From the NCBI RefSeq assembly GCF_000354175.2, contig NC_022349.1, positions 3,240,001-3,272,000 of the forward strand: 32,000 nucleotides of DNA, in the 5' to 3' direction. Both the position numbers and the translations under genes were made by a program. Shown here piece after piece: positions 16,092 through 32,000 of this stretch; position 1 is the stretch's first letter; each line of letters opens with the position of its first letter. Origin of the DNA: Vibrio alginolyticus NBRC 15630 = ATCC 17749 (lineage in GTDB: Bacteria > Pseudomonadota > Gammaproteobacteria > Enterobacterales > Vibrionaceae). Below the pieces are notes generated by a model, which worked only from the letters and a program-made list of their open reading frames with translations, did not search any database and was not told the DNA's origin.

Positions 16092-19000
16092 TTGATACAA
16101 AAGGTTTTCGTCTTGCTACGCCAATTAGCCCTTGCTCTGTTGGGCTTTGTCTTATCCTACCAAGCATTTGCGCTTCATAATGCAAATGCAATCTTTTACC
16201 CTTTGCCAACTCAGGCAAAGGGTACTTTTATCGCGGCTAAAAAGTTGTTCTTGGGTGAAAAGGGTGGTTTGTGGATTCATGACGTACACGGGAGAGTCCT
16301 GTTTTACGATGGTCAAACTATATTGCCTAAATCAGGTAGCTTCCTACAAACGTCGGCCAAGCAGTTGGCCTATCATAAAGGTGCTTTTTGGACCTTTATT
16401 GAAAATGAGGTCTATCGAACTTATCCAAATCAGGAGCGACGTTTAGTCTTTAGTTTAAATCCAGGCTCACAAATAAGAAAAATAGGGTCTTCAAAGAACT
16501 ATATTTGGGTGAGTGATGGCGCGCATTTCTATACCTACAATATCGACACTAGCGAGTTAAACTCTTTCTCTCTATTGCAGCTCTATCAACATAGTAATAA
16601 TAGCTACGTTTACATTAATGATGCGGTGCTAGTTGAAACGAAGTGGGCACTAGCAACGACTTCCGGCTTCTATCTTTCTGAAGGTGATAAGTTTGACCAT
16701 GTCGCTGCCTCAGGTCAAAACTACATTGAGAAAGTCTATTATTCACACACGCGAAGAGAAATTTTGATAGGTACATTGCGTGGCGCTTTAATTTTCAACA
16801 TTTACCAGCCTGATAAAGAAGTGATTAGAATTGGCGGCTCACATGTTTTGACATTCGCAGAGACAAATCAAGAGTATTGGGTGGGGACAGAGCATGGCCT
16901 TTATTTGTACTCATTTTTTTCAGGTGAGGTCACCGAAGTCGCGCCTGCAAGTTTTCTTGAGTTAGAGTTAGATAACACGAAGATTTATTCGTTGTTGAGT
17001 GACAATATGGGAGGGATGTGGATTGCGACTAACCAAGGTATTCGTTATTACTCGCTATTTAGTAAAAAATTTGAACGAGTGACCTTTAGTAGTTATGACT
17101 CACACACCCTATCAGGACGAATTCGGCAAACTATTGAAGGTCCTGATGGTGCGCTTTGGTTTGCTGATGACCGAAAGATTTATCGTTCAGGAAAGAGTGG
17201 GATTAACCAAGTCTTAGAGTTGGAGTCGCAGATCAATGAATTTGCGTTTCAAAACGGCATGCTTTGGCTTGCAACCTCAAAAGGGCTGGAAATATTTGAG
17301 CTAAATGGTCTCAACAAGATTACATTTCCTTATTTACAGGTTATGGCCGGACATGCCGTAGAGCATGTGACCGTTGATGGTGATGACCGTCTTTGGGTAT
17401 CAAGCGGATACCATCTTTACAATGTTGATACTGCTGCACAAAGCGTACGAAACTTTGGAAGTGAGTGGCTAGTAAGTCAGTATTTGCCTGCTAAGGTTAC
17501 GCGCCTATATGATACTGAAGATGCCCTATTAATAGGCACCGATCATGGCGTATACCAATACAGTAATGACAACATCCAGTTTATCCGTTTTTCAGAAAAG
17601 TTTGGTGAATCATTAGACATGACCACGGCGGTTGATGGCAGCCAGTGGTTTGCTTCATCTTATGGTGTGTTTAAAACTGATACACGAAGCGATGAAAAAC
17701 GTGTTGTTGAAATGAGTGAGCCCAACGCCAGACCTGCTTGCTTGATCAGAGACAGGCAAGGTATATGGTTAGCTTCCTCTGTCGGTTTAAGCTATTACCA
17801 CCTTTCGGGTGAGTTAGTGAAACATTACTCATCGTCATCAGGCTTAATGAACAATGAGTTCCTCCCTGGTATTTGTAGCGTTATACAGCAGACAGAAATT
17901 GGTGAGCGAGAGCTTGTTCTGGGGTCGAAGTACGGACTCGTAAAAGCAGAAGCATCCAAGCTGCTTGTATCTAATCCCCCAGAGTCTAAGTTTATTGTTA
18001 GCCAAGTTGTGCTTGAAAATGAAGTTCTGCAAGTTGGTAGTGCCGATCTGAATGGGATCACACTGCCATATGGATCTTCGCTGAGTTTTTTATTCGGTGT
18101 GATGCCAAAACCAGACAGTCAAAATTTGTACTATCGATTGAACAACGATGACCCATGGCAAACGTTAGAGGGGGGCCAACTGACACTCGAGCACCTTAGT
18201 TCCGGTGAATATCACTTGCAGGTCAGTAATGAGTCTCAAGTTGCCACTGGAGTCGTTGGTTTAGAATCTCACTTTATCGTCCTTCATCCTTGGTATCTAT
18301 CGCGATTTGCTATTTTAGGCTTTGTCGTAGCTAGTATTGCGGTCGTCGCATTACTTGTTTTCTGGCGCTCTCGCTACGTTGTACAGGCTAACCGTGATCT
18401 AGCAGCTCAAGTGACTCTCAAAACGAATCAGTTAAGACATCAAAGTAGAGTGTTGCTTACGAGCAACCAGCAATTACGTAAACAGATTCAAGTTAGAAAC
18501 CTACTCGTAGACCATGTAGCTCTATCCATAAAATCAAGCGTCGACTTTATTGTGGCGAAACTACCTATGCCTCTCGATACTGCGACGGAGGATCATTTGG
18601 CTAAAACGAATTGGCAGTTAAATGAACTCAAAAGTGTTCCAAGTGATGTAAGTGGTGGGAGTCAGAACTACAACTTGAGTCAGATAACTCAGTCAGTGGT
18701 TGATGTATGGCAAGATGACTTTGCAAAAGCGGGTATTTTGGTAGAGCTAGAAGATGAGAGCAAGCAGAGCCGGGTTGCTCTGGAAAGTTTTAATCTTGAT
18801 GTTATTTTCAATAGCATTTTTGCCAATATCATCAAGCGCTCTTTCCGAGGTCAAACGGTTAGAATTATGCTAGAAGAGGGACATGATATTGTGTCATTGA
18901 GCTTTCTTGATTACGGGACGCAATTACCTAATAAAGTCGCGACTGGGCTTCCATCTAACTTAAATCACTCTGAGTTGAGTATTGACCACCTTGCCCAACT

Positions 19001-19490
19001 AGTGACAACGAGTGGTGGTTATTTGGCTGTCTTCTCTTCTGATGCTCAAAACAAAGTCGAGATTACATGGCCATCTGCGAAGGAAAGGAGTTATCTGGAT
19101 GAACCGCAGCAAGAACTCAATCCTGTAACTATTGCAGAAGATCAAGTCACACCAGAGAAAGAGTGGTTGCAAAAAGTCTATCAATTAGTGGCAGAGCATT
19201 ACCATGATCCTGAATTTGGCACTGCGTCAGCCGCTAAAATGCTGTATATGTCTGAACGCTCTTTGCAGAGACGTTTTAAATCTGCCTCGTCAAGAACGTT
19301 AAAAGACTATGTCACAGAGGTTCGTTTGGAAACGGCGTGTGAAAAGTTATTGGCGGGTGAGAAAATCAGTGAAGTCGCCTTTAACTGTGGCTTTAATGAT
19401 CCATCTTACTTTAGCCAAAAGTTTAAGCTGCATTTTGGTTTGCCCCCTTCCAAGTTTGCTTTGACTCAAGAAAGCCAAGAAATTAACTAG
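16092..19490 (+). CDS. tfoS: Membrane-anchored one-component regulator: periplasmic propeller repeats + Y_Y_Y, one TM helix, degenerate histidine-kinase-like module, no receiver, C-terminal AraC HTH (TfoS-like)
   Basis: 1132-aa ORF. The start is TTG at 16092, with no in-frame ATG nearby and no clear RBS, so the start is uncertain. Domain calls come from motifs read in the translation (see findings). The position between znuA and feoA matches my memory of V. cholerae TfoS. The symbol is assigned on architecture plus synteny, not on an alignment. Confidence 0.6.
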   Translation: MIQKVFVLLRQLALALLGFVLSYQAFALHNANAIFYPLPTQAKGTFIAAKKLFLGEKGGLWIHDVHGRVLFYDGQTILPKSGSFLQTSAKQLAYHKGAFWTFIENEVYRTYPNQERRLVFSLNPGSQIRKIGSSKNYIWVSDGAHFYTYNIDTSELNSFSLLQLYQHSNNSYVYINDAVLVETKWALATTSGFYLSEGDKFDHVAASGQNYIEKVYYSHTRREILIGTLRGALIFNIYQPDKEVIRIGGSHVLTFAETNQEYWVGTEHGLYLYSFFSGEVTEVAPASFLELELDNTKIYSLLSDNMGGMWIATNQGIRYYSLFSKKFERVTFSSYDSHTLSGRIRQTIEGPDGALWFADDRKIYRSGKSGINQVLELESQINEFAFQNGMLWLATSKGLEIFELNGLNKITFPYLQVMAGHAVEHVTVDGDDRLWVSSGYHLYNVDTAAQSVRNFGSEWLVSQYLPAKVTRLYDTEDALLIGTDHGVYQYSNDNIQFIRFSEKFGESLDMTTAVDGSQWFASSYGVFKTDTRSDEKRVVEMSEPNARPACLIRDRQGIWLASSVGLSYYHLSGELVKHYSSSSGLMNNEFLPGICSVIQQTEIGERELVLGSKYGLVKAEASKLLVSNPPESKFIVSQVVLENEVLQVGSADLNGITLPYGSSLSFLFGVMPKPDSQNLYYRLNNDDPWQTLEGGQLTLEHLSSGEYHLQVSNESQVATGVVGLESHFIVLHPWYLSRFAILGFVVASIAVVALLVFWRSRYVVQANRDLAAQVTLKTNQLRHQSRVLLTSNQQLRKQIQVRNLLVDHVALSIKSSVDFIVAKLPMPLDTATEDHLAKTNWQLNELKSVPSDVSGGSQNYNLSQITQSVVDVWQDDFAKAGILVELEDESKQSRVALESFNLDVIFNSIFANIIKRSFRGQTVRIMLEEGHDIVSLSFLDYGTQLPNKVATGLPSNLNHSELSIDHLAQLVTTSGGYLAVFSSDAQNKVEITWPSAKERSYLDEPQQELNPVTIAEDQVTPEKEWLQKVYQLVAEHYHDPEFGTASAAKMLYMSERSLQRRFKSASSRTLKDYVTEVRLETACEKLLAGEKISEVAFNCGFNDPSYFSQKFKLHFGLPPSKFALTQESQEIN

Positions 19491-19852
19491 AAAACCTTCA
19501 TTATACGCTCCCTAGTTAATAGTTAAGATGCTGGGGAGCTGCATACAGTGCTCTATTATTGCTGCAGTTGCTAACGCAGTAAGTTTCATTGTTTCTTCAT
19601 CACATCTAGCCTACAAATCCATTCTCAACACGTAAGCACGATCACGTTCTATCTGTTAGTCGCGATGTTCATAGCAATAAGCATAAATGGCTTCAAGAGA
19701 ATGATTTACTGATAGTTGCAACAAATAAATGACAGTTGTATTGCTGTATCAAAAGAGCGTTGTTCATTTGGGTGAATGATGGCATGCGACATTCGTGAAA
19801 ACGAAAACTGTGTTGAAAAGATGGATAAGGTAAAGAAGTTTTGAAAGAGGTG

Positions 19853-19977
19853 AAAAAAATATCGTGGTATAGCCGGGGGGACTATACCACGGGTGTCAAG
19901 GACACCTTCGCTTGCTGCCGGAGTGACATGTTGCCATGCCACCTCTGGAATTTATTAGAGAGGTTGCCCTCTCGATG
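19853..19977 (-). ncRNA. tfoR: Candidate Hfq-type small RNA (TfoR-like) ending in a strong intrinsic terminator; 5' end uncertain
   Basis: On the minus strand there are four consecutive hairpins. SL1 is GAGAGG-GCAA-CCUCUC (19973-19958). SL2 spans 19948-19918 with a GCAA loop. SL3 is GGUGUC-CUU-GACACC (19906-19892). The terminator is CGUGGUAUAG-UCCCCCCGG-CUAUACCACG (19891-19863) followed by AUAUUUUUUU (to 19853). An AU-rich single-stranded linker UAAUAAAUU is present. A possible -10 TATAGT lies at 19989-19984. Strand and name are inferences. Confidence 0.45.
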
Positions 19978-20261
19978 GAGTAACTATACGAGAGGTTACT
20001 TATTTTTCTTATAAAAATAACGCCATGTTTATATGAGAAAAGCGACAACGTTTTGTTTTTTAATTAACCCACTGTTTTAATTTGCATTTTTTGTTTTCTA
20101 TCTTGGTTTGTGACATTTTTGTTTCGTTAGGTGTCATTTTTAATTGTTAATTTTGACGTAAATAACGAGAGGAAATTTACGAAGTTAACGTTTGAAAGCG
20201 TGAAAACATTTACGGAATCTTTGATTTCACACAAGGATTGAAGGGGTATAGGGGAGTAATA

Positions 20262-20300
20262 TTGGCAACCTAAACTTATTAAATAATAATATTTCTCATT
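20262..20300 (+). promoter_or_regulatory. Putative feoABC sigma70 promoter with an overlapping Fur box
   Basis: -35 TTGGCA (20262-20267), a 16-nt spacer, then -10 TAATAA (20284-20289). AATAATAATATTTCTCATT (20282-20300) matches the Fur consensus GATAATGATAATCATTATC at 12/19 by my count and covers the -10. Confidence 0.45.
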
Positions 20301-20322
20301 AGCAATACTCTTAAGGGCCACT

Positions 20323-20550
20323 ATGAAGTTATCAGAGATTAATCCTGGCGATACGGTGACGATTCGGTTGTTAGATGGTCTTTCATCAGATATCAGAAAG
20401 AAACTCATGGTAATGGGGCTGCTTCCCAATACAGAAGTCAAAGTGATTCGACGTGCGCCAATGGGCGATCCTTTACAAGTCGAAGTCCGTGGTGTGTCTG
20501 TCGCATTGCGAGAAACAATTGCTCAGAAAATTGAAGTGGAGCGAGTGTAA
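20323..20550 (+). CDS. feoA: Ferrous iron transport protein A
   Basis: 75-aa SH3-like FeoA (GDTVTIRLL...LMVMGLLPNTEVKVIRRAPMGDPLQV). AAGGG RBS is present. The stop overlaps the feoB ATG (TAATG). Confidence 0.93.
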   Translation: MKLSEINPGDTVTIRLLDGLSSDIRKKLMVMGLLPNTEVKVIRRAPMGDPLQVEVRGVSVALRETIAQKIEVERV

Positions 20551-22826
20551 TGCAATATCAAGTGCTAACCGTAGGTAACCCTAATAGTGGTAAAACGACG
20601 CTATTTAATGGTTTAACTGGCGCAAAACAGCAAGTTGGTAACTGGGCAGGCGTCACGGTTGAAAAGAAAACGGGACAATTCAAGCATGCTGGGGATGAGT
20701 TTTTGCTCACTGACCTTCCGGGTATTTACTCATTAGACAGTGGTAATGATAGTAATAGTATTGATGAATCCATCGCATCGCGTGCGGTTCTAACTCATCC
20801 TGCTGATCTCATTATTAACGTGGTGGATGCTACAAGTTTAGAGCGCAGCTTATATATGACGCTGCAACTTCGCGAACTTGGTCGCCCTATGATTGTTGTC
20901 CTCAACAAGATGGATGCGCTAAAGCGTGAACGTCAGATGATTAACGTTGCAGAGCTTGAGAAAACGTTAGGTTGTCCGGTTGTCAGTTTATCTGCAACCA
21001 ATAAAACTCAAGTGGCAGAGTTTAAAGAAAAGCTTCATAAATCCATCGTTCAAGGAGTGCCACTTAAAGAATTGTCTTTGCATTACGGTGAGAAGATGGA
21101 GTCGGCAATTCAAACGGTTTCCGCACTTTTTAACGACCAAAACGTCGCTCATCGTGCACTAGCGATTCGTGCGCTTGAAAAAGACACAATGGTGCTCAAT
21201 AGTCTTTCTGATATTGATAGAAGCAAAGTCTTGGAAGTCATTACGACGTTAGATTTGGATATCGATTTGCATGTCGCGGATACTAAGTACACGCATCTGC
21301 ATGAACAGTGTAAAAAAGTTCGCCGAAGCGAAGGCAAGTTAAGTCGTAGTGTGACTGAAAGACTCGACCAGTTTATTTTGAACAAGTGGATTGGAATTCC
21401 TTTCTTCTTTGTTGTTATGTACCTGATGTTTATGTTCTCGATTAACATCGGTAGTGCATTTATCGACTTTTTTGACATTGGTGCGGGCGCATTGTTGGTT
21501 GATGGTGGACATCACTTGTTAGATGGTCACCTACCTGTTTGGCTGGTTACGGTGATTGCTGATGGTTTAGGCGGCGGTATTCAAACGGTTGCTACCTTCA
21601 TTCCGGTTATCGCGTGTTTGTACCTGTTCCTAGCGGTACTTGAGAGCTCAGGTTACATGGCTCGTGCTGCGTTCGTGCTCGATAAAGTCATGCAGAAAAT
21701 CGGCCTACCGGGCAAAGCATTTGTACCGTTGGTTCTTGGTTTTGGCTGTAACGTACCATCAATCATGGCGACTCGTACTCTAGACCAAGAACGTGAGCGT
21801 AAACTGGCTGCATCTATGGCGCCATTTATGTCATGTGGTGCTCGTCTGCCTGTATACGCGCTATTCGCTGCGGCATTCTTCCCAGGTTCTGGCCAGAACA
21901 TTGTATTCGCACTTTACCTACTTGGTATTGTGGCAGCGATCTTCACAGGTCTTTTCCTTAAGCACACGCTTTACCCAGGTAGCAGCGATAGCCTAGTGAT
22001 GGAAATGCCAGATTACGAGCTTCCGACGCTACAAAACGTGGTGATCAAAACTTGGCAAAAGCTAAAGCGCTTTGTACTTGGTGCAGGTAAAACCATCGTT
22101 ATCGTTGTTGCTATTCTGAGTTTCTTCAACTCATTGGGTACTGATGGCAGTTTTGGTAATGAAGACAGCGAAAACTCGGTGCTTTCTAAAGCTGCGCAAG
22201 TTGTAACTCCAGTATTCGCGCCAATCGGTGTTCAAGAAGATAACTGGCCAGCGACGGTTGGTATCATTACCGGTATCTTCGCAAAAGAGGCGGTAGTTGG
22301 TACGCTTAACAGTCTATACACCACGCCAAGTGACGGTGAAGACGCAGAATTTGATCTAATGGGCAGCCTAGAAGAGGCAGTAATGAGTATCCCTGAAAAC
22401 TTAGCCGGTTTGAGCTACTCAGATCCACTAGGCATTGAAGTGGGTGACTTAACTGACTCAAATGCCGTTGCCGAAGAACAAGAAGTCGATGCTTCTATCT
22501 TCGGTAACATTAAATCGCAGTTTGCTTCTGGCAATGCCGCATTTGCTTACCTAATCTTTATCCTACTGTACACTCCTTGTGTGGCGGCGATGGGTGCTTA
22601 CGTACGTGAGTTTGGTCATAAGTTCGCACGCTTTATCGCGGTTTGGACAATGGGCTTGGCTTACCTATGTGCGACGTTCTACAACCAATTGACGCATTTC
22701 GCAGATAGCCCAGTGACAAGTGGTATTTGGATGGCTGTGATCGTTGCTATCTTCTTTGGTACCTACCGCGTGTTCAAACAAGTTGGTAAGAAACAAAACG
22801 GTGCATTAGAGGCGCAAGTAGCATGA
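20550..22826 (+). CDS. feoB: Ferrous iron transporter B (N-terminal G-domain plus polytopic permease)
   Basis: 758-aa product with G1 GNPNSGKTT, G3 DLPG and G4 NKMD, followed by a multi-TM gate region (GFGCNVPSIMATR, LLYTPCVAAMG). Confidence 0.97.
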   Translation: MQYQVLTVGNPNSGKTTLFNGLTGAKQQVGNWAGVTVEKKTGQFKHAGDEFLLTDLPGIYSLDSGNDSNSIDESIASRAVLTHPADLIINVVDATSLERSLYMTLQLRELGRPMIVVLNKMDALKRERQMINVAELEKTLGCPVVSLSATNKTQVAEFKEKLHKSIVQGVPLKELSLHYGEKMESAIQTVSALFNDQNVAHRALAIRALEKDTMVLNSLSDIDRSKVLEVITTLDLDIDLHVADTKYTHLHEQCKKVRRSEGKLSRSVTERLDQFILNKWIGIPFFFVVMYLMFMFSINIGSAFIDFFDIGAGALLVDGGHHLLDGHLPVWLVTVIADGLGGGIQTVATFIPVIACLYLFLAVLESSGYMARAAFVLDKVMQKIGLPGKAFVPLVLGFGCNVPSIMATRTLDQERERKLAASMAPFMSCGARLPVYALFAAAFFPGSGQNIVFALYLLGIVAAIFTGLFLKHTLYPGSSDSLVMEMPDYELPTLQNVVIKTWQKLKRFVLGAGKTIVIVVAILSFFNSLGTDGSFGNEDSENSVLSKAAQVVTPVFAPIGVQEDNWPATVGIITGIFAKEAVVGTLNSLYTTPSDGEDAEFDLMGSLEEAVMSIPENLAGLSYSDPLGIEVGDLTDSNAVAEEQEVDASIFGNIKSQFASGNAAFAYLIFILLYTPCVAAMGAYVREFGHKFARFIAVWTMGLAYLCATFYNQLTHFADSPVTSGIWMAVIVAIFFGTYRVFKQVGKKQNGALEAQVA

Positions 22827-23053
22827 TTTTAAAAGAGCTTTATCAATACATTGCAGACAAAGGAACCGTCTCCCAGTCAGATCTGGCTAAACAGTTTGGG
22901 ATGAGTGAAGATGGCGCCGACGCGATGTTAAACGTGTGGATTAAGAAGGGCAAAATTAGCCGCCTAGTCGACACTAATAAAGCTCATGACGTGACTCGTG
23001 TTCGCTACTCAGTGACTAAACAAGATGGTTTGTCTTTGACAGTCACCATGTAG
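22823..23053 (+). CDS. feoC: FeoC-like winged-helix protein (Cys-less)
   Basis: 76-aa ORF overlapping the feoB stop (ATGA). It has the winged-helix pattern LKELYQYIADKGTVSQSDLAKQFGMSEDGADAMLNVWIKKGKI. There is no cysteine anywhere in the product. Confidence 0.8.
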   Translation: MILKELYQYIADKGTVSQSDLAKQFGMSEDGADAMLNVWIKKGKISRLVDTNKAHDVTRVRYSVTKQDGLSLTVTM

Positions 23054-30043: not shown

Positions 30044-30261
30044 AAATCAGGTACTTCCATGCATTAATATTTTAGCGTACGAATTTGTTATTATTCCCTG
30101 GCGGGTGTAACTGTACTGCCATGTTTCACCATAAATAATCTATTCTTACGTTGGTTTCAACAAAATATCCGCGTGTCGCCGCAAGCTGGTCAGATTGTGG
30201 GCTGATGTCACTCCTATTCCTCTGATATACTCTCGATAATTTTTCAAACTCAATACCAAGC

Positions 30262-32000
30262 ATGATCGCAAAAACTTTTTCCTCTGATGGCGCGTTAGGT
30301 AAGGCCATTCCTGGCTTTCAAGCTCGTCAGCCACAAATCGATATGGCGGAAGCCGTCAGCAGTGCGATCAAAGATCAAACCCAGTTGGTGGTGGAGGCAG
30401 GAACCGGAACCGGTAAGACCTTCGCATACCTAGTCCCTGCGCTGTTGAGCGGTAAAAAAGTGATCATCAGTACAGGCTCGAAAAACTTGCAAGAGCAGTT
30501 GTACCATCGTGACTTACCGCTCATGGTCAATGCGCTTGGTTTTTATGGCCAAGTGGCGTTATTAAAAGGGCGTTCTAATTATCTGTGTTTGGATCGTTTG
30601 AGCCGCCAAATGGTCGAAAGCCACACTAATGAATCTGACCCGACATTATTAACTCAACTTGTTAAAGTGCGTGCTTGGTCATCAGAAACCAAAACAGGTG
30701 ACCTTGGGGATTGTGATGATCTACCAGAAGACAGCATGATCATTCCGACCATCACCTCAACCAATGATAACTGTTTAGGTAAAGAATGTCCGAGCTACAC
30801 TGATTGCTTTGTATTGAAAGCGCGTAAGCGAGCCATGGATTCCGACATTGTTGTAGTGAACCATCACTTGTTTCTTGCTGATTTAGCGATCAAAGAAACA
30901 GGATTCGGTGAACTGATTCCAGAAGCCGATGTGTTTATTTTTGATGAAGCTCATCAGTTGCCAGATATTGCGAGCGAATATTTCGGCCAGTCAGTTTCAA
31001 GCCGCCAAATTCACGATCTTGCCAAAGACATTGAAATAGCCTATCGCACCGAAGCCAAAGATATGCGTCAATTGCAAAAAGTGGGCGACAAACTCATGCA
31101 AAGCGCAATGGACATGCGGATTGTATTGGGTGAGCCAGGCTTTCGTGGCAACTGGCGTGAGGCGTTGCAATCAGGTTCTATTAAGCGAGAATTATTGCGC
31201 TTAACTGACAGCCTCGAATTGGCGATTGATGTACTCAAAATAGCCTTAGGGCGCAGTCAATTACTGGATACCGCCTTTGAACGAGCAAATTTGATCAAAG
31301 GCCGTATCGACCGGGTATGTGATGTCGATATTACCGGTTACTCATACTGGTACGATACCTCGCCTCGTCATTTCGCTCTGCACATTACGCCTCTTTCTGT
31401 CGCGGACAAGTTCCATGAGCAAATAGAGATTAAACAAGGCGCTTGGATTTTCACGTCAGCAACCCTAGCCGTATCGGGCGATTTCAAGCACTTTACTGAG
31501 CGCCTTGGCCTCAAGCCTACAAAGCAATTTTCTCTGCCGTCCCCCTTTGATTATCAAAAGCAAGCGCGCCTTTGTGTGCCAAGGTATTTGCCAGAGCCAA
31601 ACAGTAACGGCTTAGCGGATAAGTTAGTCCGAATGCTTGCTCCGGTGATTGAAGAAAATGATGGTCGCTGCTTCTTTTTATGTACCTCGCACAGCATGAT
31701 GCGTGAACTAGGTGAGAAGTTCCGAGAAGTACTTGAGCTGCCTGTGTTAATGCAAGGGGAGATGAGTAAGCAGAAAACCTTGGCGGAGTTTATGGAACTG
31801 GGTAACGCTTTACTCGTGGCGACGGGCGCTTTCTGGGAAGGGATTGATGTTAGAGGTGATGCGCTGAGCTGTGTTATTATCGACAAATTACCGTTTACCG
31901 CCCCTGACGATCCGTTACTCAAAGCCCGTATCGAGGATTGTCGATTACGTGGCGGTGAACCATTTGCTGAAGTACAAATCCCGGATGCAGTGATTACGTT
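30262..32000 (+). CDS. yoaA: DinG-family ATP-dependent helicase YoaA (3' end beyond the window)
   Basis: It is absent from the ORF track because no stop occurs before the window ends. My translation from ATG 30262 reads MIAKTFSSDGALGKAIPGFQARQPQIDMAEAV...VVEAGTGTGKTFAYLVPALL (Walker A). It continues with NDNCLGKECPSYTDCF (Fe-S Cys cluster), IFDEAHQLPD (DEAH box) and WEGIDVRGD, and ends ...EVQIPDAVIT, collinear with E. coli YoaA. Confidence 0.9.
   Translation, partial: MIAKTFSSDGALGKAIPGFQARQPQIDMAEAVSSAIKDQTQLVVEAGTGTGKTFAYLVPALLSGKKVIISTGSKNLQEQLYHRDLPLMVNALGFYGQVALLKGRSNYLCLDRLSRQMVESHTNESDPTLLTQLVKVRAWSSETKTGDLGDCDDLPEDSMIIPTITSTNDNCLGKECPSYTDCFVLKARKRAMDSDIVVVNHHLFLADLAIKETGFGELIPEADVFIFDEAHQLPDIASEYFGQSVSSRQIHDLAKDIEIAYRTEAKDMRQLQKVGDKLMQSAMDMRIVLGEPGFRGNWREALQSGSIKRELLRLTDSLELAIDVLKIALGRSQLLDTAFERANLIKGRIDRVCDVDITGYSYWYDTSPRHFALHITPLSVADKFHEQIEIKQGAWIFTSATLAVSGDFKHFTERLGLKPTKQFSLPSPFDYQKQARLCVPRYLPEPNSNGLADKLVRMLAPVIEENDGRCFFLCTSHSMMRELGEKFREVLELPVLMQGEMSKQKTLAEFMELGNALLVATGAFWEGIDVRGDALSCVIIDKLPFTAPDDPLLKARIEDCRLRGGEPFAEVQIPDAVIT

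Follow-up and report, generated by a model that had tools for sequence, protein, structure and literature searches.

A full-length tfoR gene in the tfoS–feoA spacer of Vibrio alginolyticus and a tentative longer precursor of its small RNA

Identification of tfoR

[quoted passage not shown] When the whole window was searched against Rfam 15 with cmscan, the tfoR family (RF02100) matched 19951–19853 (−) with 110.2 bits (E = 3.3e-28), well above the gathering score of 70 bits. The match was full length, covering model positions 1–101 of 101. RF02100 was the sole Rfam match at the gathering threshold in the window, and it fell on the minus strand only. The initial annotation, made without database searches, had proposed a TfoR-like sRNA on the minus strand of the tfoS–feoA spacer and named a covariance-model search and a comparison with the V. 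cholerae spacer as checks. The proposal is borne out by the Rfam match, by synteny, and by covariation. The principal genes of the locus are as follows.

16092–19490, plus strand: tfoS orthologue, 1132 aa, with a Pfam Reg_prop propeller and a C-terminal HTH_18/HTH_AraC domain
19853–19951, minus strand: TfoR core, 99 nt here, equal to the published 102-nt V. cholerae form and the RF02100 extent
20323–20550, plus strand: feoA, matched by NCBIfam and Pfam FeoA, diverging from tfoR

The combination of a Reg_prop propeller with an AraC-type HTH is the architecture described for TfoS (PMC3903286). The tfoS start codon is uncertain, and the protein is 1125 aa long in public assemblies. On the other side of the spacer, feoA, feoB, and feoC span 20323–23053 (+), and the encoded FeoA is 100% identical to a Vibrio "MULTISPECIES" FeoA common to species of the V. 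alginolyticus group. A znuA gene lies just upstream of the locus, with znuCB just beyond. Thus placed between the orthologues of VC2080 (tfoS) and VC2078 (feoA) and antisense to both, tfoR occupies the setting known from V. cholerae, where VC2078 and VC2080 are named as its flanking genes (PMC8545128). The V. cholerae locus, fetched via its FeoA (L125), has the same layout, tfoS(+)/tfoR(−)/feoABC(+), and the spacer there also contains an RF02100 match, of 102 nt. At closer range, a 5,551-bp fragment of the locus is 99.98% identical to assembly GCA_052865095.1, and the TfoR core differs from that of V. harveyi by one base. The minus-strand sequence of 19853–19977 is CAUCGAGAGGGCAACCUCUCUAAUAAAUUCCAGAGGUGGCAUGGCAACAUGUCACUCCGGCAGCAAGCGAAGGUGUCCUUGACACCCGUGGUAUAGUCCCCCCGGCUAUACCACGAUAUUUUUUU.

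The spacer (19491–20322) is the longest noncoding stretch in the window, as the initial annotation had recognized; an apparent gap at 30068–31553 is not gene-free, being occupied by a helicase ORF that runs past the window end. Two further elements were observed in the spacer. Downstream of the TfoR terminator and on the same strand, a 25-codon ATG ORF, MKLTALATAAIIEHCMQLPSILTIN (19512–19589, −), lies where V. cholerae has the annotated VC2079. Just upstream of feoA, AATAATATTTCTCATTAGC (20285–20303) shares 14 of 19 bp with the Fur box consensus and overlaps the only plus-strand sigma-70-like promoter match (20262–20290), making it a candidate Fur site of the kind expected for an iron-repressed feoABC operon.

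The feature is an ordinary, already described sRNA. Conservation of TfoR in other Vibrio has been reported, the pathway has been dissected in V. cholerae, and the Rfam family is curated. For annotation, the identification is useful in marking this genome as carrying an intact chitin-to-competence relay, comprising tfoS, a conserved promoter, and tfoR.

Fold, covariation, and strand

Five elements of the TfoR core recur below, all on the minus strand.

19918–19948, minus strand: stem-loop 1, 12 bp with two single-base interruptions; core stem 19941–19935 with 19930–19924
19892–19906, minus strand: stem-loop 2, 6 bp
19853–19891, minus strand: Rho-independent terminator, with a 12-bp stem (19891–19863), a 5-nt loop, AUA, and U7 at 19859–19853
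19903–19921, minus strand: invariant segment CCGGCAGCAAGCGAAGGUG, 19 nt, comprising the linker and the start of stem-loop 2
19939–19951, minus strand: conserved 5′ segment AUUCCAGAGGUGG, a Shine-Dalgarno (SD)-like tract and part of the reported tfoX-pairing region

The 125-nt minus-strand stretch folds into four successive hairpins at −51.8 kcal/mol (shuffle mean −30.5; z = −6.5). The 99-nt Rfam core on its own reaches a minimum free energy (MFE) of −41.2 kcal/mol (z = −5.2). All four hairpins had been placed on this strand by the initial annotation, and each appears at its assigned position in the minimum-energy folds. The terminal hairpin was correctly described as a terminator with an AUA/U7 tail, but its stem is 12 rather than 10 bp. 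Directly after this stem comes AUAUUUUUUU, and a terminator scan returned it as the sole terminator-like site in 19400–20400.

To assess covariation, species-representative genomes were scanned with a 16-nt pattern. The pattern proved too short, drawing in 95 chance matches to unrelated bacteria among its 120 loci; the 25 loci kept were the Vibrionaceae/Plesiomonas ones, each with a TfoR homologue (Vibrio, Enterovibrio, Photobacterium, Salinivibrio, and Plesiomonas). The resulting alignment comprised 26 sequences, and the ten loci that were rescanned, including the most divergent, all passed the Rfam gathering score. Half of the base pairs (14/28) showed changes on both sides, a level reached in 0 of 500 shuffles. 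By helix, both-side changes occurred in 7/8 pairs of stem-loop 1, 6/12 of the terminator, and 1/6 of stem-loop 2. Paired cells made up 97.9% of the total versus 92.3% in column shuffles, where again 0 of 500 reached the observed value; in a control with partners slid by 1–3 columns, 23–47% of cells were paired. Within stem-loop 2, every cell is paired (100%), and there are 12 one-sided changes to G-U and one both-side change, so that its covariation support is mainly from G-U changes. RNAalifold recovered the Rfam structure from the 26-sequence alignment. Compensatory substitution, which the initial annotation had offered as a test of its helices, thus supports three of them, namely both stem-loops and the terminator. 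Small ORFs overlapping TfoR (one of 57 aa on the plus strand, two of 78 and 50 aa on the minus) were rejected as coding because the stem variation is compensatory and loop lengths change by non-multiples of three.

Sequence conservation is concentrated in two places. Segment CCGGCAGCAAGCGAAGGUG is identical in 26/26 aligned sequences, including those from Photobacterium, Salinivibrio, and Plesiomonas, and segment AUUCCAGAGGUGG (AUUCCAGAGGUG) is nearly invariant across Vibrio. The AUU at the 5′ end of the core is kept in the aligned sequences from Vibrio, Enterovibrio, and Photobacterium but not in those from Salinivibrio and Plesiomonas. SD-like purine tracts had been pointed out in the initial annotation and are present, but the GAGAGGG tract is species-specific, and the conserved one is CCAGAGGUG, at the 5′ end of the Rfam core.

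Two observations concern the wider distribution. A TfoR homologue from a Plesiomonas sp. metagenome-assembled genome (L021, 4235–4332) scores 74.6 bits, above the Rfam gathering score. Plesiomonas belongs to Enterobacterales outside Vibrionaceae; its TfoR has the invariant 19-nt segment and a different 5′ segment, and a TfoX/Sxy protein (P0258 cluster) is also found in Plesiomonas. In V. hibernica, two copies of PAGEV RNA (RF03037; L014, 280–497 and 2824–3042; 125 and 113 bits) lie a few kb from tfoR.

The strand is assigned with the same alignment. G-U pairs account for ~81 of 718 paired cells (~11%), and they fit transcription of the minus strand only, because on the plus strand they would be A-C mismatches. 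We give almost no credence to the idea that the structures belong to a plus-strand transcript, such as a tfoS 3′ UTR or terminator or a long feoA leader. The plus strand does fold better than its shuffles (z = −3.8), as the reverse complement of any structured RNA would, yet less well than the minus strand. No terminator-like site was found on the plus strand in 19400–20400, and no U-run follows any plus-strand hairpin; the Rfam match is likewise confined to the minus strand. The minus-strand choice made in the initial annotation is therefore right, although one of its arguments did not hold. The two GCAA (GNRA) loops cited as strand evidence are present, at 19934–19931 (the loop of stem-loop 1) and 19967–19964, but both are specific to the V. 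alginolyticus-type species group, and the corresponding loops in other species read UUCC, CCUC, AAC, etc. They were rejected as evidence of strand.

Promoter and candidate activator sites

The 170 nt upstream of the TfoR core were aligned across homologous loci, revealing a conserved promoter block, TGTCG-N~17-TG(T/G)CGTTA(A/T)TTTTATAAG-N~20-TATAGT, in nearly all Vibrio loci and in V. cholerae. In the window, the block includes the following elements.

19983–19988, minus strand: −10 box TATAGT of the tfoR promoter, conserved in nearly all Vibrio loci and in V. cholerae
20007–20047, minus strand: direct repeats TGTCGCTTTTCTCATATAA (20047–20029) and TGGCGTTATTTTTATAAGA (20025–20007), 22 bp apart

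The TATAGT hexamer singled out in the initial annotation is real and conserved; its position is 19988–19983, one base from the 19989–19984 first given. A sigma-70 scan found no −35 box to match it. The accompanying suggestion of an activator-dependent promoter agrees with the alignment, in which TATAGT stands at a fixed distance from the conserved direct-repeat site. The repeats lie at −71 to −31 relative to A19976, the predicted start discussed below, and we consider them a candidate binding site for TfoS, an AraC-type protein. TfoS binds PtfoR directly in V. cholerae, where a TfoS site is flanked by the ChiS site and the −35 box (PMC3903286, PMC11856585). The repeat site was not found printed as sequence in the literature examined.

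Farther upstream, 20095–20160 (−) contains the GTCA/TGAC motifs ACGTCAAAAT, TGACACC, and TGTCACAAACC, at −181, −160, and −138 from the predicted start. The V. cholerae tfoR promoter has six GTCA motifs from −218 to −168, inside the published ChiS-binding-site deletion. The motifs in the window may be the equivalent of the ChiS site.

These promoter features also bear on whether the gene is still functional. Competence regulation is reported to vary among Vibrio species (PMC7564644), which would accommodate a decaying or silent tfoR copy whose expression or function was lost in this lineage. We judge this very improbable: the model score is full length, the 19-nt invariant segment is intact, and every helix is paired. 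Moreover, the conserved promoter block is accompanied by an intact tfoS ORF of 1132 aa, and the locus is 99–99.98% identical across three independent assemblies.

A predicted precursor with a 5′ leader hairpin

The published 5′ end, in Rfam and in the original description, is the equivalent of 19951. The promoter geometry points farther upstream. Depending on the species, 12 to 43 nt separate the −10 box from the core (AUUCC), and the sequence downstream of TATAGT is variable. We infer that tfoR transcription starts near A19976, yielding a 124-nt primary transcript, because the activator repeats keep a fixed geometry with TATAGT rather than with a point 12–43 nt further on, and because no conserved −10-like hexamer adjoins 19951. 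The ~125-nt, four-hairpin extent drawn in the initial annotation fits this predicted start better than the 99-nt Rfam boundary does. The elements involved are listed here, with an arrow for the putative cut.

19853–19976, minus strand: predicted primary transcript, 124 nt, starting at A19976, 7 nt past the −10 box
19958–19973, minus strand: 5′ leader hairpin GAGAGG-GCAA-CCUCUC, −10.6 kcal/mol, outside the Rfam model
19949–19957, minus strand: AU-rich single-stranded linker UAAUAA↓AUU, unpaired in the MFE fold, a putative processing junction

The leader hairpin is more stable than expected for its composition (p = 0.0005 versus 2000 shuffles), and this fourth hairpin (19973–19958) is probably transcribed. 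A leader stem folds in 23 of the 24 homologous loci with a recognizable −10-like hexamer (the leader-stem count is 22 without a −10-to-core gap of 22 nt or less); one homologous locus is without such a hexamer. In a shuffle test of 19 leaders, p was below 0.05 in 15 and below 0.07 in 17, the weakest hairpins being those of Salinivibrio sharmensis (p = 0.071) and V. cholerae (p = 0.11). The stems differ by lineage: GAGAGG/CCUCUC, CAGGG/CCCUG, AAGAGAA/UUCUCUU, GUCUUC/GAAGAC, GAUAACG/CGUUAUC, and CAGGC/GCCUG. Since the hairpin is weak in V. cholerae and the leader is almost absent in Enterovibrio (12 nt), as it is in one Salinivibrio, the 5′ hairpin is not universal.

A longer transcript could be reconciled with the published 5′ end by processing. 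The V. cholerae RNase E motif is RN↓WUU (PMC7398697), and it is fitted by the core junction both here (AA↓AUU, 19952↓19951) and in V. cholerae (GA↓AUU). Trimming of the primary transcript to a ~100-nt form at the AU-rich linker is plausible on this basis, and the Rfam model, the 102-nt description, and many annotations would then probably represent the processed form rather than the primary transcript.

Published V. cholerae data bear on both this reading and its main competitor, that only the 99-nt Rfam-defined TfoR is made, with a start at 19951, and that neither the GAGAGG/CCUCUC repeat nor TATAGT is transcribed, both being promoter or operator DNA. AUUCC is the 5′ start shared by the Rfam model and the 102-nt TfoR published for V. 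cholerae, and the major northern band, at ~100 nt, is in keeping with such a start. Minor bands are also reported at ~130 and ~250 nt (PMC8545128), of which the ~130-nt one speaks against it. The V. cholerae tfoR expression primer starts at GTTGAAAGGACATCCCTC (PMC8545128), which falls exactly 7 nt past TATAGT in the V. cholerae locus and predicts a 132-nt RNA, so that the construct begins at the upstream site. In addition, the TfoR–rpoS pairing site is numbered +79 to +113 (PMC8545128), which is impossible on a 102-nt RNA. At the DNA level, a start at 19951 lacks a conserved, suitably spaced −10-like hexamer; TCTAAT, ending just 2 nt upstream of it, lacks conservation. Such a start would also let the distance from the activator repeats and TATAGT vary by up to 31 nt, which is hard to square with an AraC-type activator beside the −35 region. 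We regard a 99-nt-only TfoR as unlikely, while still allowing it some weight.

The fuller model, which we advance tentatively and rate at a little short of an even chance, is that TfoR of most Vibrio is made as a longer precursor (124 nt here) with a 5′ hairpin conserved in structure and variable in sequence. An RNase E-type cut at RN↓AUU would free the active form, with AUUCCAGAGG at a monophosphorylated 5′ end, and the precursor would possibly be protected or partly self-inhibited. The 3′ arm of the leader, CCUCUC (19958–19963), is complementary to AGAGG in the core (19941–19945) on the minus strand, and the 5′ arm, GAGAGG, resembles that core segment. An alternative precursor fold could mask the seed; the predicted minimum-energy fold does not contain it. 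The added value of this work is modest and concerns the boundary: a predicted start 12–43 nt upstream of the Rfam 5′ end, with a hairpin there in most species.

Pathway and TfoX-family loci

The circuit to which TfoR belongs has been demonstrated experimentally in V. cholerae. Chitin oligosaccharides activate membrane-bound TfoS, which directly activates tfoR transcription; ChiS assists by binding upstream in PtfoR and holding the promoter at the membrane (PMC3903286, PMC11856585, PMC10335731, PMC8545128). TfoR together with Hfq pairs with the tfoX 5′ UTR, exposing the SD sequence (PMC3903286, PMC10335731), the mechanism that the initial annotation had named. TfoX, with CRP, then turns on competence genes, and rpoS is also repressed by TfoR (PMC3903286, PMC11856585, PMC10335731, PMC8545128). 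The TfoR–tfoX pairing of V. cholerae is reported to involve nt +1 to +61 (PMC8545128), a region conserved in the TfoR of the window except at compensated stem positions.

By homology, transcription of the minus strand from the activator-dependent promoter (repeats 20047–20007, −10 box 19988–19983) would start near A19976 and end at the U7 terminator (19853), giving a 124-nt RNA with the 5′ hairpin at 19973–19958. This RNA would probably be trimmed at AA↓AUU (19952↓19951) to a 99-nt form, the equivalent of the 102-nt V. cholerae TfoR, which would expose the conserved AUUCCAGAGGUGG at its 5′ end. That the same chitin–TfoS–TfoR–TfoX circuit operates in this genome is suggested by sequence, since the genome retains an intact tfoS and promoter block, and its TfoR an intact conserved 5′ segment and invariant linker.

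TfoX-family loci were examined for TfoR sites. A homologue search seeded with E. coli Sxy gave only enterobacterial proteins among the 120 matches listed, and a metagenome scan for tfoX gave tfoY and distant homologues only. P0284 and its orthologues (L127–L133) were rejected as tfoX; they are tfoY, with a c-di-GMP-I riboswitch upstream of each (for example, c-di-GMP-I-type riboswitches at L127 1296–1385 and L132 1302–1388, in TfoX-family leaders from the V. alginolyticus group and V. cholerae). Also set aside, as divergent or accessory paralogues, were V. stylophorae TfoX1 (L134), V. maritimus P0299 (L216), and V. cholerae P0320 (L217) and P0600 (L219). No convincing TfoR site was found upstream of these four, and duplex energies equaled those of shuffles. 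The best match, a 13-nt run (G-U allowed) at ~1450–1462 of L217, complements the invariant TfoR segment GCAAGCGAAGGUG and lies upstream of a rare 218/234-aa TfoX-family paralogue. Chance alone would give about 0.05 runs of this kind. The run probably falls within an upstream ORF and is likely a coincidence.

Comparison with known systems

The closest comparison is TfoR of V. cholerae (Yamamoto et al. 2011, J Bacteriol 193:1953, as cited in PMC3903286). The two RNAs share the three core helices and the terminator. Segments AUUCCAGAGGUGG, at the 5′ end, and CCGGCAGCAAGCGAAGGUG, 19 nt long, are identical in both, and the promoter block with TATAGT recurs as well. The RNAs differ at the apex of stem-loop 1, which in the window is compensatorily changed and 3 nt shorter, giving a core of 99 rather than 102 nt. 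The −10-to-core leader also differs: it measures 25 nt and has a strong 6-bp hairpin in the window, while its V. cholerae counterpart measures 30 nt and its hairpin is weak. By sequence, the terminator, with its 12-bp stem and AUAU7, is the usual 3′ Hfq-binding module, and Hfq binding is predicted from this.

A second parallel concerns maturation. ArcZ and RprA are sRNAs matured by RNase E. As in such RNAs, the TfoR precursor would be cut in a single-stranded AU-rich stretch, and the shorter, abundant form would keep the terminator; the case for TfoR processing, unlike that for ArcZ and RprA, comes from promoter geometry and two V. cholerae northern bands.

The broadest parallel is in mode of action. 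In E. coli and Salmonella, DsrA, RprA, and ArcZ activate rpoS by anti-antisense translational activation. TfoR resembles them in principle, as an Hfq-dependent sRNA that pairs with the upstream arm of an inhibitory 5′ UTR hairpin and frees the ribosome-binding site. TfoR and its target are unrelated to them in sequence, and the likeness is one of mechanistic analogy rather than family membership.
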